Positions 1 through 9,165 of a stretch of DNA of 10,062 nt are shown piece by piece (position 1 is the first letter of the stretch; the number at the start of each line of letters is the position of its first letter). The stretch lies in sequence record NZ_CP087609.1, one strand, 5' to 3'. Source of the stretch: a plasmid. A program made the position numbers and the translations under genes. A model generated the notes under the pieces. That model had not been told where the DNA came from and did no database searches. It saw nothing but the letters and a program-made list of their open reading frames with translations.

Positions 1-214
1 GATGTTTGAACCAGAGGCCTATGCGGGAAAAATGTGCACCGTGCGGATATCCATACAACGTGATGGCACTCTGAACAGCGCCATTGCTGAAGGAGGAGAT
101 CCGAAACTCTGTAAAGCAGCAATATCAGCCGTTACCCACGCCAAAATTCCGCCGGCACCGGATGAAAATACCTGGCAAATATTCAAAAACGCCCCTCTGG
201 ATTTCAGACCATGA
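1..214 (+). CDS. 3' portion of a TolA C-terminal (domain III)-like protein. It is partial at the window edge and is probably the continuation of the lipoprotein ORF at 9905-10062 across a circular junction.
   Basis: The frame-2 ORF ends ...YAGKMCTVRISIQRDGTLNSAIAEGGDPKLCKAAISAVTHAKIPPAPDENTWQIFKNAPLDFRP*. This aligns residue-for-residue with my recollection of the E. coli TolA C-terminus (SSYAGKTCTLRIKLAPDGMLLDIKPEGGDPALCQAALAAAKLAKIPKPP...VFKNAPLDFKP), including both cysteines. The stop TGA at 212-214 overlaps the ATG of the next gene (ATGA). Confidence 0.7.
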   Translation, partial: MFEPEAYAGKMCTVRISIQRDGTLNSAIAEGGDPKLCKAAISAVTHAKIPPAPDENTWQIFKNAPLDFRP

Positions 215-576
215 AAGCTTTTACTCTGACAGTGCTGGCGGCCATGTTCCTCACTCCGGTACATGCGATACCACTAAAACCCGTAACCACACTGCAGCCA
301 ACCTACCCGGTACAGGCCGCAGCAAAACGCATCGAAGGTCAGGTGACCGCCACGTTTGATATTCTGGACGATGGACGAGTGGACAACGTGTCGCTTACCG
401 GCTGTCACCTTTTTTTTCGGGAAACGCTGACGGCAATGAGGCACTGGCTATATCCCGCAGGGCACCCGGCAATGCGACAGGTTATAAATTTTGAATTCAG
501 TCTGAAAAATGACGGCTTACAGGATCCGCGACCAGTCACCACCCAAAAGCTCAATGATGATGGTTGCCGCCAGTAA
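211..576 (+). CDS. Exported stand-alone TonB C-terminal-domain protein (121 aa). It has a signal peptide and lacks a TonB-like N-terminal anchor and proline-rich spacer.
   Basis: The N-terminus MKAFTLTVLAAMFLTPVHA looks like a Sec signal peptide. The core YPVQAAAKRIEGQVTATFDILDDGRVDNVSLTGCHLFFRETLTAMRHWLYP matches the TonB CTD signature ([32 protein letters not shown]...FEREVKNAMRRWRYEP) as I recall it. It is translationally coupled to the upstream TolA-like ORF. Confidence 0.7.
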   Translation: MKAFTLTVLAAMFLTPVHAIPLKPVTTLQPTYPVQAAAKRIEGQVTATFDILDDGRVDNVSLTGCHLFFRETLTAMRHWLYPAGHPAMRQVINFEFSLKNDGLQDPRPVTTQKLNDDGCRQ

Positions 577-2691: not shown

Positions 2692-3423
2692 TCACTCCGT
2701 TGTCATAAATTTAAAGCACGCGAACAGCCTCTCCCGGTCCAGCTCCACCGTTTTGCGGGCCTCGCCGGTCTGTGGATTCACGATTTCATCCACCGCCAGA
2801 ATCGCCCGCTGTACCCGGACAAGCGTCGGCCGGTCAGGGCAGATGTACCAGATTTCATCGATGCCGTTCGCCCGGCGGTTGAACAGATACCCGGACACCA
2901 CTTCCTGATACCGCCTGCGGCTCTTGACGGTGCGCTCTACCTCAAATGCCACCGTTCTGCCGTCCAGCTCCGCCAGCGCGTCCGGCACTTTCATCCCTTT
3001 CAGGGCCATACGGTGCAGGTACCGCCAGCCGGTGGCCCCCCGGCCCTCCATGGAGAGGCGCAGGGACTGCACGGCCAGCCGGTGCGGCAGCTGCGCCGCC
3101 GACACCCTTGACGGCTGAAACGGAATAACGTCCGTCAGCGGCTCGTCCTCGTCGAACGAGAACGCCACCCCGTGCGGCGTCAGCCCCCACACGCTGACCT
3201 GACGGCCGTCAACCGGGTATTTCGCCCGGACCAGCAGCCCTTTCGCCACCAGACTGTCCAGGAAGCGGTAAACCGGCTGTACCGCCGCAATCCCCAGCCG
3301 TCGCGCAACCAGCTCCGCCGTGGAACACAGCTCTTCCCGCAGCCAGCGCAGGGTCAGCCGTGTTTTCTCCGCGTTCCGCGCCTGCCGCTTCGCGTGGCTG
3401 ACGTTGTACTGCTCCAGTGTCAT
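2692..3423 (-). CDS. mobC: MobC-like MOBC-family relaxase with an N-terminal winged-helix (243 aa).
   Basis: The 243-aa ORF has its ATG overlapping the stop of the upstream coupling-protein gene (TGATG). It carries a winged-HTH-like segment (ELVARRLGIAAVQPVYRFLDSLVAKGLLVR) and a D...E-x-K-like acidic/basic cluster (ELDGRTVAFEVERTVK). The gene order and the sizes 654 and 243 aa match my recollection of the CloDF13 mobB-mobC arrangement. The family assignment comes from memory, not from a search. Confidence 0.6.
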   Translation of the reverse strand: MTLEQYNVSHAKRQARNAEKTRLTLRWLREELCSTAELVARRLGIAAVQPVYRFLDSLVAKGLLVRAKYPVDGRQVSVWGLTPHGVAFSFDEDEPLTDVIPFQPSRVSAAQLPHRLAVQSLRLSMEGRGATGWRYLHRMALKGMKVPDALAELDGRTVAFEVERTVKSRRRYQEVVSGYLFNRRANGIDEIWYICPDRPTLVRVQRAILAVDEIVNPQTGEARKTVELDRERLFACFKFMTTE

Positions 3424-5387
3424 CAGTAAAGCCCCGCAAAATCATCATCCGCTTTTGGTCCGCCGCCGTCGGCCGGAGGCAGGTACTCCGCCAGCGGGTC
3501 CGTTTTCGCCAGCACCGGGAAGGTTTTCAGCGAAATTTCCCGGCGCTCAACCCGCAGCGGGCTGCTGAACGCCAGCCGCGCCACGCCCAGCCCGGTCATC
3601 ACCGCGAACCCGTCAGGCAGGTGTTGCAGGGTGTTCACGTCAAACAGCGGCCGCGCCTCCTTCTGGATGAAGCTGTCGCCGCTGATGTGCTCCACGTTCC
3701 CCGCCTCCCGGCTGGCCCGGCGGCGCTCCACGTCCACCCGGATCTCCCCGGTCTGGCCCGCCGCCCACTGCGCGGACTCCTGGCTGGCCGCGCGATAGAA
3801 CCAGCGGATCGGCGTGTTATCCAGTACCGTGGTTTTCACAAAATCAGCGGGCAGATCCTGCCCGCACTGACCGAAGTCGCCCAGCGACTGGTGCGCGAGC
3901 AGCAGGTTGCAGTCCCGGCTGCGCAGCGTCCCCAGCGCGTTCAGCACGTACTTCGACAGCAGATATTTAATCTCATCGAGCATGATGCTCGCGTGCGGCC
4001 ACCTCCGGAACTCATCCCGCGCAATGATGATTTGCGCGCAGCGGGCAAACAGCATCTTCTGCACCCGGATCACCGCCTCATCGTCCATCGAGCCGATGAC
4101 GTACAGGCAGCCGCCGCCGTTGATTATCCCCGCCACATCGATACCGCTGTCCGTCTGCAGGACGCTCAGGTCGGCCACGTTCTCCAGCTTGGTGATCAGC
4201 CCCTTCACGTCCTTTTTCAGGGCCTCCGGCAACGCGTACGCCGCCGCCAGCACCTGCTGAATGTTTGCCCCCTGCGGGAACTGCTCCGCAATCAGCTTCG
4301 CCGCTTTCTGCTCGCTGATGCGGTAGTGGTCCGCCACGTCGCCGGTCTCACTCAGGTTAAACCCGGCAACCAGCAGATTCTTCAGGGCGTACTGGTCGAG
4401 ATCGCGGAACAGATTCAGCTGCGCCGGTTTCCCCGGCCGCAGATCCAGCAGGGTGAAGTCCGGGCAGTGCGCCCGGAAGACGTGCGGCGCCCACGCGTCC
4501 CCTTTGGGGTCGAAGTACACCACAGCGTCCCCGAAATCGCGTACGCAGCGAATGAGCGCGTTGGTGGCCATCGCGCTCTTGCCGCTCCCGGGCAGGCCGA
4601 GGATCTGAATATTGGTCTTGCGCCAGGTATCACGAGGGACCAGCACCGGCTGGCCCTGCTCATCCTTACCCAGAAACACCGCCTGCTGTTTCCGGGCCTG
4701 CTCCGTGGAAAAATCGGCCAGCGCGTTAACCGGTACCGGCTCCCCGAAATGCAGGTGGCGGACGTCTGTCATTTCTCCGGTCCGCTGGCTGCTGCGCCGG
4801 CTCTCCTGATTCAGTTTCGCGTTCACCGCCTCGTCAGCGGCCGCAAAATGACCATCAAGCAGCAGGAACGCCAGCAGCCGCGCCAGAAGGACGCCGGCGA
4901 CAAGCCCTCCGGCACACCAGGCTATCCCGAACAGGTTAGCCGGCTGCAGCAGGTAATAATCTGCGTTCGCATAGAGGTCCGGGCGCAGGACGGTTTCTCC
5001 CCAGCTCTCGATAAACACGGCGACAACCAGCCCCCCCAGAAGGGCCAGACCGGCAGCGCCGGTCAGCCAGTACGCGTAGTTCCAGACATGTCGCCGTGCC
5101 CTGACCATCCGCCCGGGTGAATCCAGCGAGGCCAGCACCGAAAATGGCACAGTCCGGTTATTATCGCGCTTATAGCGATCGGCATACTCCCGCCGCGCCT
5201 TATGGCTCAGCCCCACAAAACGCATTCGGCCGGCCCAGAGTTCAGCCAGACCGAAAAACAGGCCGATAACCAGAAAAAAACCGGCCAGACTGTAATACTC
5301 CCGGTACAGCCAGCTGACCCACGGGTAAATCTGCCGGGCCAGCTCCGGGATATGCCACTGCCAGGCAAGCGAATCCGTATTAAACAT
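3423..5387 (-). CDS. mobB: Type IV coupling protein (VirD4/TraG/TraD-like, CloDF13 MobB-like), 654 aa with N-terminal transmembrane segments.
   Basis: The N-terminal 150 aa contain at least two long hydrophobic segments. A Walker A motif ILGLPGSGKS sits within a T4CP-like core (VLVPRDTWRKTNIQILGLPGSGKSAMATNALI...). A strong RBS AAGGAGAGAG precedes the ATG at 5387. Confidence 0.8.
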   Translation of the reverse strand: MFNTDSLAWQWHIPELARQIYPWVSWLYREYYSLAGFFLVIGLFFGLAELWAGRMRFVGLSHKARREYADRYKRDNNRTVPFSVLASLDSPGRMVRARRHVWNYAYWLTGAAGLALLGGLVVAVFIESWGETVLRPDLYANADYYLLQPANLFGIAWCAGGLVAGVLLARLLAFLLLDGHFAAADEAVNAKLNQESRRSSQRTGEMTDVRHLHFGEPVPVNALADFSTEQARKQQAVFLGKDEQGQPVLVPRDTWRKTNIQILGLPGSGKSAMATNALIRCVRDFGDAVVYFDPKGDAWAPHVFRAHCPDFTLLDLRPGKPAQLNLFRDLDQYALKNLLVAGFNLSETGDVADHYRISEQKAAKLIAEQFPQGANIQQVLAAAYALPEALKKDVKGLITKLENVADLSVLQTDSGIDVAGIINGGGCLYVIGSMDDEAVIRVQKMLFARCAQIIIARDEFRRWPHASIMLDEIKYLLSKYVLNALGTLRSRDCNLLLAHQSLGDFGQCGQDLPADFVKTTVLDNTPIRWFYRAASQESAQWAAGQTGEIRVDVERRRASREAGNVEHISGDSFIQKEARPLFDVNTLQHLPDGFAVMTGLGVARLAFSSPLRVERREISLKTFPVLAKTDPLAEYLPPADGGGPKADDDFAGLY

Positions 5388-6709: not shown

Positions 6710-6815
6710 ACAGATTTGGTTGCTGTGCTCTGCGAAAGCCAGTTACCCGGTTAAGCAGTTCCCCAACTGACTTAACCTTCGATCAAACCACCTCCCCAGG
6801 TGGTTTTTTCGTTTA
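6710..6815 (+). ncRNA. RNAI: RNA I antisense copy-number regulator.
   Basis: ACAGATTTGGTTGCTGTGCTCTGCGAAAGCCAGTTACC...CACCTCCCCAGGTGGTTTTTTCGTTT parallels pMB1 RNA I (ACAGTATTTGGTATCTGCGCTCTGCTGAAGCCAGTTACC...GGTGGTTTTTTTGTTT). It ends in a stem plus U-run terminator. The loop regions differ from pMB1. Confidence 0.8.
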
Positions 6816-6824
6816 CAGGGCAAA

Positions 6825-6853
6825 AGATTACGCGCAGAAAAAAAGGATCTCAA
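6825..6853 (-). promoter_or_regulatory. RNA II promoter (-35 TTGAGA at 6848-6853, -10 TAATCT at 6825-6830, read on the minus strand).
   Basis: The minus strand reads TTGAGAtcctttttttctgcgcgTAATCT with a 17-bp spacer, as in pMB1. Confidence 0.6.
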
Positions 6854-6862
6854 GAAGATCCT
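6837..6862 (-). terminator. Hairpin plus U7 on the minus strand immediately after the lysis gene. It is the likely terminator of the bacteriocin operon and overlaps the RNA II -35.
   Basis: The minus strand reads AGGATCTtcttgAGATCCT followed by TTTTTTT (complement of A6837-6843). The lysis gene stop is at 6873-6875. Confidence 0.45.
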
Positions 6863-6872
6863 TTGATCTTTT

Positions 6873-7022
6873 CTACTGAACCGCGATCCCCGTCAGTTCA
6901 GAGGAGGACGATGGTGCCACCGTTCCGCCCTGAACATCCCGGATATAATTTGCCTGACATGCGGCCAGAAGAAAGCCAGCAACAATCAATATAAAAAGAA
7001 AAATAGTCTTTACCTTTTTCAT
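6873..7022 (-). CDS. Bacteriocin release (lysis) lipoprotein, 49-aa precursor. It is not in the supplied ORF track.
   Basis: My minus-strand translation is [49 protein letters not shown]. The lipobox LLAAC, the mature 28-aa peptide and the overall sequence match colicin and cloacin BRP/lysis proteins as I recall them. An RBS AGGGAAAG precedes the ATG. Confidence 0.85.
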
Positions 7023-7042: not shown

Positions 7043-7075
7043 GACTCCGGCATTCATCCCTGAACACCGGAAGTC
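7043..7075 (-). terminator. Imperfect hairpin between the immunity and lysis genes. It is a possible partial terminator or attenuator limiting lysis-gene expression.
   Basis: The minus-strand RNA reads GACUUCCGG-(16 nt)-CCGGAGUC followed by UUUAAAU. The stem has one bulge and the U-tract is weak. Confidence 0.25.
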
Positions 7076-7106: not shown

Positions 7107-7364
7107 TTACCAGTTACCGTCCCGATAATCAAAAGCTATATAACAATTATCCACATCAGGTTTTATTTGATTTTTAAAAAATGGCTGTAGTAAAGGAACC
7201 CATTCTTTCTTCAAATCAAACTCACCATTATTAATATTATCCTTTAAAGGCATTCCCAAGCTTTCAATGACAGAACCATCGTCACCAAAGTCTTTAGAAT
7301 ACTCTTCCCCTTTAAACTCTTCAGTTTTCTTATCAAACCATGTCAAACGTAATTTAAGCCCCAT
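7107..7364 (-). CDS. Immunity protein of the colicin E3/cloacin DF13 (rRNase) type, 85 aa.
   Basis: [43 protein letters not shown]...WVPLLQPFF...FDYRDGNW closely parallels my recollection of ImmE3 ([43 protein letters not shown]...FDYRDGDW). An RBS GAGAGG lies 9 nt after the bacteriocin stop. The gene is AT-rich. Confidence 0.9.
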
Positions 7365-7373
7365 ATTTACCTC

Positions 7374-9059
7374 TCAAAGATATTTTTTAATGTTCCGTTT
7401 TGGATCTGGCCCTTTAACCTGCTTACCCGTTTTGGGATCAAATGCGCCTAGGTGTTCGCCATCACTGGCACGATACCCTTCAAGCTCACCGTGCTGGGAA
7501 TCCCATTCATAAATTTTACGTTTTTTATCGCCATACCATCGGGCCCGCTTACCACCACCACCTTGTTTAGGTGTTTTAGGATCACCTCGCTTTAACTCTC
7601 CAAGTCCCTTTATGTCTTCTGTTTTAGGTACTGGATGATAATCATGGCCGTAGTCTTTAGTCCCCTTGCGAGGCTTGTTCTTTTCCTCATTTAACTTATT
7701 TTCTGCATCCTTCGCTTTTTTCTCCTTTTGTTTCCGGCTCTCCATCGCCCCGGTAAGTGCAGCCTTATCTCTGGATAAGGATTCATTCATTGCGTTTAAA
7801 GATGCCTGAGCCGCTTTTAATTTCTCATTCTGATTCTGAATATCCTTATCAAGATAGCGAACCTGATCCTGCCACCCGGAGCCATATTCATGAGGCGGGT
7901 TATAAGTCACAAAATCATCTTTATTTGCCTCTGCCTCTTTTACCTTTTTATCGGCTTCCTGAACAGCAGCCCTTGCACCGGGGAGCGCCTTCTCTGTCGA
8001 TGCAATGCGGCTGTTTAAGGTCGCAATATTTTTATCTTCGGCATCCAGCTCAGCTTTCGCTTTATCATAGTCTCTTTTCAGCCCCTCTTCCGGATGAGCG
8101 GCGTCCCATGCCTGCTGGCGACGCTTTTCTTCCTCCTGACGCTGTTTTACCTGTGCCGGGGTAAGAACATCTGTCACCGACACATAAACCGGCTTCTGTC
8201 CGGTCTCTTTCGGGAAACGAATAACGGCCTCACGGGAGTTACCACCGGCTGTAAAACCAGCCGGACGTGAATCACCTTTTTCAGCAACAATGCCTTTTGG
8301 CGGGGCTTTCGCTGTCGGAACACCTTTCGGTACGCTCACCTGCAGAGACGGGAGACCCGGAATCGACACACTGAATACCCCCGGACGTTTTGTCGGTTTC
8401 GCATCCACCACAGGGACACTCATTGGCCGACCTGCGACAACCGCAATATGCTGCCGCTCATCCTTCACCACATCCACAACCCGTTGTCTGACACGAACCG
8501 TCGCCTGGTCCAGTGGTAAAGTACTTGCCGGAGTCTCCGTCACCGCATCGGCCGGTAATGACGTCATAATTTTTGACATCATTTTCGGATCATCTTTTGC
8601 AATCTCAGAAGGCAGCACACCGTAGATCGCAATCCCCCACAGACCAAACTTAAACGGCCCCTTCAGGGCAGCCAGCACATCAGCAACGGCGGCCGACAAC
8701 GCATCGCCGGAAACTGATAAAGCCAGTCCTTCAGCCCCCGGAGTAGCCAGGGCAGGCAGACCGAAGGCCATCGCAGTGGCCGAAGACTGTCCGCCACCAG
8801 AGCTACCGCTATGATTGCCGCTGTTACCACCATTACCACCGGGTTTACTCCCGCCGTTACCAAACTCCCCCGGATTATAGTTATGAATATCTCCATTCGG
8901 CGTATGCGTCGTACCCCAGCCCGGCCCGCTGTTTGGATCCGTACCACCACCTGATGAAGGGCCACCTTTACCAGACGTACCGTTCACATTCCCACTGGCC
9001 TGACCACCATTATGTCCCAGACCTGAATTACCCGGACCTCGACCGTCTCCACCACTCAT
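7374..9059 (-). CDS. Cloacin DF13-like bacteriocin, 561 aa. It has a glycine-rich N-terminal translocation domain, a central receptor-binding region and a C-terminal 16S-rRNase domain.
   Basis: The N-terminal roughly 100 aa are rich in G, S and N (MSGGDGRGPGNSGLGHNGGQASG...). The C-terminus ...DYGHDYHPVPKTEDIKGLGELKRGDPKTPKQGGGGKRARWYGDKKRKIYEWDSQHGELEGYRASDGEHLGAFDPKTGKQVKGPDPKRNIKKYL matches my recollection of the colicin E3 rRNase domain (...DYGHDYHPAPKTENIKGLGDLKPGIPKTPKQNGGGKRKRWTGDKGRKIYEWDSQHGELEGYRASDGQHLGSFDPKTGNQLKGPDPKRNIKKYL). The length equals that recalled for cloacin DF13. Confidence 0.9.
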   Translation of the reverse strand: MSGGDGRGPGNSGLGHNGGQASGNVNGTSGKGGPSSGGGTDPNSGPGWGTTHTPNGDIHNYNPGEFGNGGSKPGGNGGNSGNHSGSSGGGQSSATAMAFGLPALATPGAEGLALSVSGDALSAAVADVLAALKGPFKFGLWGIAIYGVLPSEIAKDDPKMMSKIMTSLPADAVTETPASTLPLDQATVRVRQRVVDVVKDERQHIAVVAGRPMSVPVVDAKPTKRPGVFSVSIPGLPSLQVSVPKGVPTAKAPPKGIVAEKGDSRPAGFTAGGNSREAVIRFPKETGQKPVYVSVTDVLTPAQVKQRQEEEKRRQQAWDAAHPEEGLKRDYDKAKAELDAEDKNIATLNSRIASTEKALPGARAAVQEADKKVKEAEANKDDFVTYNPPHEYGSGWQDQVRYLDKDIQNQNEKLKAAQASLNAMNESLSRDKAALTGAMESRKQKEKKAKDAENKLNEEKNKPRKGTKDYGHDYHPVPKTEDIKGLGELKRGDPKTPKQGGGGKRARWYGDKKRKIYEWDSQHGELEGYRASDGEHLGAFDPKTGKQVKGPDPKRNIKKYL

Positions 9060-9099: not shown

Positions 9100-9165
9100 C
9101 AACATACTGTACATATACACAGTATAATTATTACCTTACTCCTCCCGTTTTCAGGTGTCAATATA
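9100..9165 (-). promoter_or_regulatory. SOS-regulated bacteriocin promoter. A LexA box lies at 9107-9122 inside a 20-bp palindrome, with a candidate -35 TTGACA at 9157-9162 on the minus strand.
   Basis: TACTGTacatatacACAGTA (9105-9124) contains CTGT-N8-ACAG and is a perfect 20-bp palindrome. On the minus strand TTGACA lies upstream and an AT-rich TAATAATTATACT region could provide the -10. The exact -10 cannot be fixed by eye. Confidence 0.6.

Follow-up and report, generated by a model that had tools for sequence, protein, structure and literature searches.

CloDF13, ColE1 and the plasmid under study

The bacteriocin plasmids ColE1 and CloDF13, the closest described systems to the locus reported here, were sequenced in the 1980s, and the ColE1 promoter for the replication primer, RNA II, has been mapped experimentally. 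Studies of CloDF13 and of ColE1 vectors from the same decade are said to have found that copy number is raised when upstream transcription enters the primer region. The CloDF13 work reportedly yielded copy-number mutants arising from transcription reading into this region and the cop-1(Ts) mutation near the primer promoter, while work on ColE1 reportedly examined the GATC sites of that promoter. A search of open-access texts, among which the classical CloDF13 papers were not included, returned none on an overlap between a terminator and the RNA II promoter or on induction-dependent copy number.

The window analyzed here, by which we mean the entire 10,062-nt stretch of plasmid DNA (NZ_CP087609.1), belongs to the CloDF13 family of ColE1-type bacteriocin plasmids, with all the testable defining features of that family being present. 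It shares with CloDF13 (NC_002119): the gene order (cloacin, immunity, gene H, RNA II promoter); the MOBC-type mobilization genes (Replic_Relax and TraG-D_C); and the ColRNAI replicon. The record is about 100 bp longer than that of CloDF13. With an 801-nt query across the region, identities of 99.8-99.9% were obtained to plasmids of Klebsiella and E. coli measuring 8.8-10.1 kb; the closest relatives, within the same range of identity, are Klebsiella plasmids of about 8.8-10.1 kb, and MOB-suite typing of the relatives gave ColRNAI_rep_cluster_1857 and MOBC. ColE1 (NC_001371) differs in having a pore-forming colicin, an oppositely oriented immunity gene (cea-imm-kil) and a divergent RNA II body.

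A complete bacteriocin operon, with a ColE1-type replication control region behind it, occupies the minus strand from ~9160 to ~6800. The operon promoter region (~9161-9121, minus strand), in which the promoter scan places a promoter-like site at 9154-9127, contains a LexA (SOS) box, CTGTACATATACACAG (9107-9122, minus strand), an exact CTGT-N8-ACAG palindrome just upstream of the cloacin gene. Three genes follow, all on one strand: a 561-aa cloacin-type bacteriocin gene (7374-9059) with the Pfam Cloacin (E=2.8e-103), E2R135 and Cytotoxic domains; an 85-aa cloacin immunity gene (7107-7364; Pfam Cloacin_immun, E=3.4e-39); and, as the last gene of this LexA-box cloacin-immunity-lysis operon, a 49-aa bacteriocin release (lysis) lipoprotein gene (6873-7022; Pfam PF02402, Lysis_col). 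Elsewhere on the minus strand (2692-5387) are the mobilization genes typical of CloDF13, which encode a 243-aa relaxase-like protein with a Replic_Relax domain and a 654-aa coupling-type protein with a TraG-D_C domain. On the opposite strand a 567-aa ORF (3417-5120) overlaps the 654-aa gene almost fully and is probably a shadow ORF. A 121-aa ORF at 211-573 (plus strand) contains a TonB C-terminal domain (PF03544, E=8.9e-11); the toxin of this plasmid uses Ton/Tol-type import routes.

The lysis gene and the hairpin that precedes it

The minus-strand ORF at 6873-7022 had been proposed as a bacteriocin release gene from its translation, and both the translation and the assignment hold. The Lysis_col profile matches it with 123.6 bits against a cutoff of 27 (E=2.7e-36), with residues 1-49 aligned to profile positions 1-49, which rules out a chance ORF. 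The lipobox LAAC occupies residues 19-22, with the cysteine at position 22, and leaves a mature part of 28 aa. The product is identical to that of CloDF13 gene H at 45 of 49 residues (92%), and all four substitutions lie in the signal peptide: the mature peptide is that of the CloDF13 bacteriocin release protein (BRP), an identity from which lipid modification and quasi-lysis/bacteriocin release activity are predicted. The sequence-only reading had, however, presented the gene as unlisted. It is CloDF13 gene H, the ORF is present in the mechanically generated ORF list, and RefSeq labels it ‘colicin release lysis protein’ not only in CloDF13 and ColE1 but also in all of the close relatives; its apparent absence stemmed from the ORF track used in that reading and is no property of the sequence. 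A tblastn search detected the lysis protein in 1106 PLSDB plasmids. In practice, this toxic gene escapes any ORF track whose minimum length exceeds 49 aa.

Between the immunity and lysis genes lies a strong hairpin (7043-7075, minus strand), a candidate partial terminator or attenuator that we call T1. A single bulge interrupts its 14 bp, and its U-tract, CUUUAAAU, is weak; the segment 7023-7110 folds at -24.7 kcal/mol (z = -4.7). Relative to CloDF13 its stem has undergone a compensatory A-U to G-C change. This compensation (GACU/AGUC versus GGCU/AGCC) suggests that the structure is conserved and gates expression of the lysis gene, as an attenuator or through processing. We considered this hairpin as the final terminator of the operon and rejected it, as it sits upstream of the lysis gene and can only attenuate.

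The predicted operon terminator lies within the RNA II promoter

Downstream of the lysis gene, the terminator scan, folding and conservation together define a predicted intrinsic terminator of the operon, T2, at 6838-6864 (minus strand). The scan reports AAAGGATCTTCTTGAGATCCTTT followed by TTTTCTGCGC for minus-strand positions 6864-6842. The hairpin begins 8 nt past the lysis stop codon (6873-6875) and consists of a stem of 10 pairs, including one U-G, with arms at 6864-6855 and 6851-6842, and a CUU loop (6854-6852); a T7 run occupies 6844-6838. A hairpin followed by U7 had earlier been placed at 6837-6862: the structure is there, but its stem-loop runs from 6864 to 6842. A 51-nt segment (6880-6830) folds at -18.2 kcal/mol (z = -3.9), a stability that no sequence among 200 shuffles reached, and the hairpin alone at -10.1 kcal/mol. 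Such an AU-rich stem (approximately -10 kcal/mol) makes some read-through likely. Three GATC (Dam) sites (6868-6865, 6860-6857 and 6849-6846) fall within 23 nt, the last two forming the core of the hairpin arms.

The same DNA contributes to the RNA II (primer) promoter, which is predicted at 6825-6853 (minus strand) with a -35 element TTGAGA (6853-6848), a 17-nt spacer and a -10 element TAATCT (6830-6825). The earlier description of the -35 hexamer as lying in the loop of the hairpin is right as to the overlap itself, though not as to the placement, as the hexamer spans two loop bases and four bases of the 3' arm. The promoter assignment rests on identity with ColE1 and CloDF13 and on the position of RNA I; it is absent from the list produced by a sigma-70 scan of the window, because TAATCT matches TATAAT at only 3 of 6 positions. 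RNA I, the antisense copy-number regulator with three stem-loops, was located on the plus strand at 6711-6812 by a full-length match to Rfam RF00106 (model positions 1-102; 75.3 bits against a gathering score of 47; E=8.5e-13). RNA II must therefore run on the minus strand, co-directional with the operon, just as the sequence-only reading had it. The predicted RNA II start (~6816) is on the opposite strand, a few nucleotides past the 3' end of RNA I (6812).

No second hairpin occurs between the lysis stop codon and the RNA II start, in line with the earlier claim that the lysis gene has a single hairpin-plus-U7 downstream. A transcript released 7-9 nt past the stem would end at about 6838-6835, that is, within the spacer between the -35 and -10 elements of the RNA II promoter. 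As the only terminator overlaps this promoter, operon transcripts are predicted either to end in the spacer or to enter the primer region, which bears out the earlier prediction that they terminate at, or read through, the primer promoter.

The inverted repeat at 6842-6864 is terminator-like on the plus strand as well, with AAAGGATCTCAAGAAGATCCTTT followed by GATCTTTTCT; it lies 30 nt beyond the RNA I terminator and could act as a bidirectional back-up that keeps RNA I transcripts from running on into the lysis gene. We regard it as highly improbable that this is the main role of the element, with the plus-strand structure shielding the lysis gene from antisense transcription. The symmetry of an A-tract and a T-tract is indeed typical of bidirectional terminators; against this, RNA I has a strong terminator of its own at 6785-6806, the T7 of the minus strand makes a better U-tract than the plus-strand tail GATCTTTTCT, and such a role would be compatible with termination of the operon.

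Conservation of the junction in CloDF13, ColE1 and related plasmids

The window and CloDF13 are identical at 85 of 85 nt over a segment that starts in the final codons of the lysis gene and takes in the hairpin, the T7 run and the RNA II promoter. The kil stop of ColE1 (CAGTAG) is followed by AAAAGATTAAAGGATCTTCTTGAGATCCTTTTTTTCTGCGCGTAATCT, with no difference from the window in hairpin, T7, -35, -10 or their spacing; one of the three GATC sites has been lost (GATT). The 85-nt junction was found in 986 PLSDB records, 678 of them at a minimum of 99% identity, and these include plasmids for the colicins E1, K, D, 10 and R. Judged from these comparisons, the predicted terminator-in-promoter layout is real but ordinary: it is already known, unchanged in CloDF13 and ColE1, and routinely annotated.

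For a broader view of primer promoters we collected variants from genome, metagenome and viral collections and from fetched plasmids with the pattern TCTTCTTGAGAT-N9-CTGCGCGTAATC, which fixes 24 of ~50 bases: the two hexamers are fixed, while the 5' arm and a 9-nt stretch covering the end of the 3' arm and the T-tract are free. This yielded 63 distinct variants. A scan of the genome collection with the 14-mer TCTGCGCGTAATCT gave 120 matches, most of them due to chance or cloning-vector contamination and a handful informative. All 19 lysis-bearing variants, those with an intact lysis gene upstream, retain GGATC/GATCC, AAA/TTT and T7, and their stop codon invariably lies 14 nt from the search pattern. 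Compared with the window, this set shows 99.3% identity at the 23 pattern-free positions and 64% at third codon positions of the region coding for the mature peptide. Of the 39 variants that lack a lysis gene, 14 have the full hairpin and T7, and 33 have both GATC sites. The association of hairpin plus T7 with the lysis gene (19/19 versus 14/39) has a Fisher p of 1.5e-6, with the caveat that the variants are related and the pattern itself dictates 24 of the ~50 bases, which makes this non-independent evidence.

These counts bear on an alternative in which the inverted repeat would be a by-product of promoter architecture, namely two Dam GATC sites flanking the -35 element and a T-rich spacer, and no terminator at all, the operon ending elsewhere or by means of Rho. 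As GATC is self-complementary, two sites 7 nt apart automatically give a 4-bp stem, and such a by-product would be consistent with the retention of both sites in 33 of 39 lysis-free origins and with the occurrence of the full hairpin and T7 in 14 of 39. However, TTGAGA and TAATCT persist in p15A-like and other origins that lack the T-run and the extended stem, and the promoter evidently works without these. The extra G-C pair, the AAA/TTT pairs and the T7 run are hence dispensable for the promoter and nevertheless invariant beside the lysis gene, which points to a separate constraint, termination. Given further the lack of any other terminator between the lysis stop codon and RNA II, and the plasmid described below that has kept the stem while losing the promoter, we consider the by-product explanation improbable. 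T2 termination and its efficiency are predictions, and the conservation supports a real terminator.

The full hairpin shows no association with a co-directional upstream ORF in the lysis-free origins (3/14 with the hairpin versus 12/25 without it), leaving a general model, in which the element is an insulator wherever one is needed, unsupported. In such origins the full hairpin may instead be a relic of colicinogenic ancestors. ColE1-like plasmids have been described as evolving away from bacteriocin production and towards antimicrobial resistance (PMC8683028), a trend with which a relic would agree.

Lysis operons on other replicons

Colicin E2/E-type operons on ColE2/Col156-type plasmids, which replicate by means of a Rep protein, have a stand-alone strong terminator ~25 nt past the lysis stop codon. 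It shares with T2 its place at the end of an SOS operon, but the hairpin, AAAGCGTGTCAGGCTGATTCTGATGCGCTTTTTTTT, is unrelated and GC-richer, and overlaps no replication promoter. The existence of this separate terminator indicates that the operon needs one whatever the replicon.

A homologous element is seen in a 26-kb Salmonella IncFII plasmid (L247; NZ_CP075136.1), where a tRNase-type colicin operon resides on a non-ColE1 replicon. Here the lysis gene is followed by a hairpin and T6, AAAAGGATCTCAGTGAGATCCTTTTTT. The hairpin, AAAAGGATCTCAGTGAGATCCTTTTTTCTGCGC (848-885), has a perfect 11-bp stem; the TTG of the RNA II -35 element and the -10 element are lost, so that the terminator is present without the promoter. 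This configuration speaks against the by-product explanation, as the stem and T-run have been kept, and the stem even perfected, in the absence of the promoter hexamers. The plasmid looks like the recipient of a transplanted operon that has kept the terminator half of the module.

A counter-example comes from a 6.3-kb ColE1-like plasmid of Edwardsiella tarda (L257; NZ_CP084509.1, 824-890), in which a divergent lysis gene (50% identity) adjoins a ColE1-like RNA II promoter, TTGAGAT...GTCGTAATCT. The T-run is absent, and the stem comprises no more than the 4 bp of GATC/GATC. In this natural case one would expect transcripts to run on into RNA II, contrary to insulation. No colicin gene is annotated upstream of this lysis gene.

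Two large conjugative plasmids show the module cut. In one (L258, 794-830) unrelated sequence after TTGAGAT interrupts the hairpin; in the other (L255, 785-830) the sequence after the lysis stop codon, GGAACGAAAACGTACGTTAG, is similar to a terminal repeat of the Tn3 family. Insertion or recombination appears to recur at this site.

Probable insulation of the replication control region and possible coupling to the SOS response

We interpret the locus as the classical CloDF13/ColE1 layout, in which the Rho-independent terminator of an SOS operon overlaps the RNA II promoter and has insulation as its main job, a reading to which we assign a probability of about 0.8. Under this proposal, SOS-derepressed transcription from the cloacin promoter would be partly attenuated at the hairpin 7075-7043; the remaining transcription would allow translation of the lysis gene and then terminate at 6838-6835 in the promoter spacer. 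The T2 hairpin would in this way keep heavy transcription, induced from a very strong promoter, out of the RNA I/RNA II control region, and the same DNA would double as the -35 region and include two or three Dam sites. It is this double duty, as terminator and as -35/Dam-site region, that would account for the frozen sequence of the module. Three lines of evidence, viz. the invariant hairpin and T7 beside the lysis gene, the IncFII hairpin without a promoter and the independent terminator of the ColE2-type operons, indicate selection that keeps termination efficient, in other words insulation.

The sequence-only reading had favored the converse, a coupling by which SOS induction perturbs plasmid replication via promoter occlusion or extra pre-primer. 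In an adaptive coupling of this kind RNA II output would change by promoter occlusion, a 5'-extended pre-primer or interference with convergent RNA I transcription, and copy number would shift in cells committed to bacteriocin release. Some interaction is unavoidable, given that the predicted release point falls inside the promoter spacer, and a T2 stem of only about -10 kcal/mol makes leakage plausible. Minimum free energy folds of 5'-extended RNA II, which are model-dependent, lend weak further support: stem-loops I and II persist in all extensions tested and stem-loop III in one, so that a read-through RNA might still act as a primer precursor. Nothing in the sequence itself separates coupling from insulation. 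Yet the perfect U7 and the invariant stem in every lysis-bearing variant suggest that efficient termination has been selected for, on non-ColE1 replicons the terminators of lysis operons come without a replication promoter, and, as induced cells lyse, the selective value of a change in copy number is uncertain. The comparative evidence as a whole better fits insulation of the replication control region than its perturbation by the SOS response, and coupling appears unlikely to us.

A more specific version of coupling would have the overlap tuned, such that leakage or stalling at the AU-rich hairpin upon SOS induction changes the synthesis of both primer and RNA I, and copy number and bacteriocin gene dosage rise or fall in the subpopulation committed to lysis. 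We hold this to be similarly doubtful. Were it true, the invariance of the 50-nt module would reflect a triple constraint: terminator, promoter and Dam sites.

Persistence of the operon terminator in vector origins

The origins of the pMB1/pBR322/pUC and CloDF13-derived vectors have the identical hairpin, T7 and RNA II promoter and lack the lysis gene. In pMB1/pBR322-type origins (e.g. L052, ~2480-2560) homology to the lysis-bearing plasmids starts exactly at GTAGAAAAGATC, the old lysis stop codon, and in the vector-type loci this is preceded by ...GAGCGTCAGACCCC, which we take to be a Tn3-type inverted-repeat end. A TEM bla gene is co-directional, with its stop codon 165 nt upstream, in 28 of 42 vector-type loci, and the old operon terminator may now serve bla in these.

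An identical pMB1/pUC-type origin was also recovered from assemblies labelled Mesorhizobium, Lacinutrix, Runella, Faecalibacterium and Thiohalocapsa. The loci with this type of origin comprise L011, L049, L052, L063, L069, L105, L117 and L120, along with ~40 metagenome loci (e.g. L172 and L238); these matches almost certainly represent cloning-vector contamination of public assemblies.

The common pMB1, CloDF13 and related vector origins retain, inside their primer promoter, what is predicted to be the old terminator of a bacteriocin operon.
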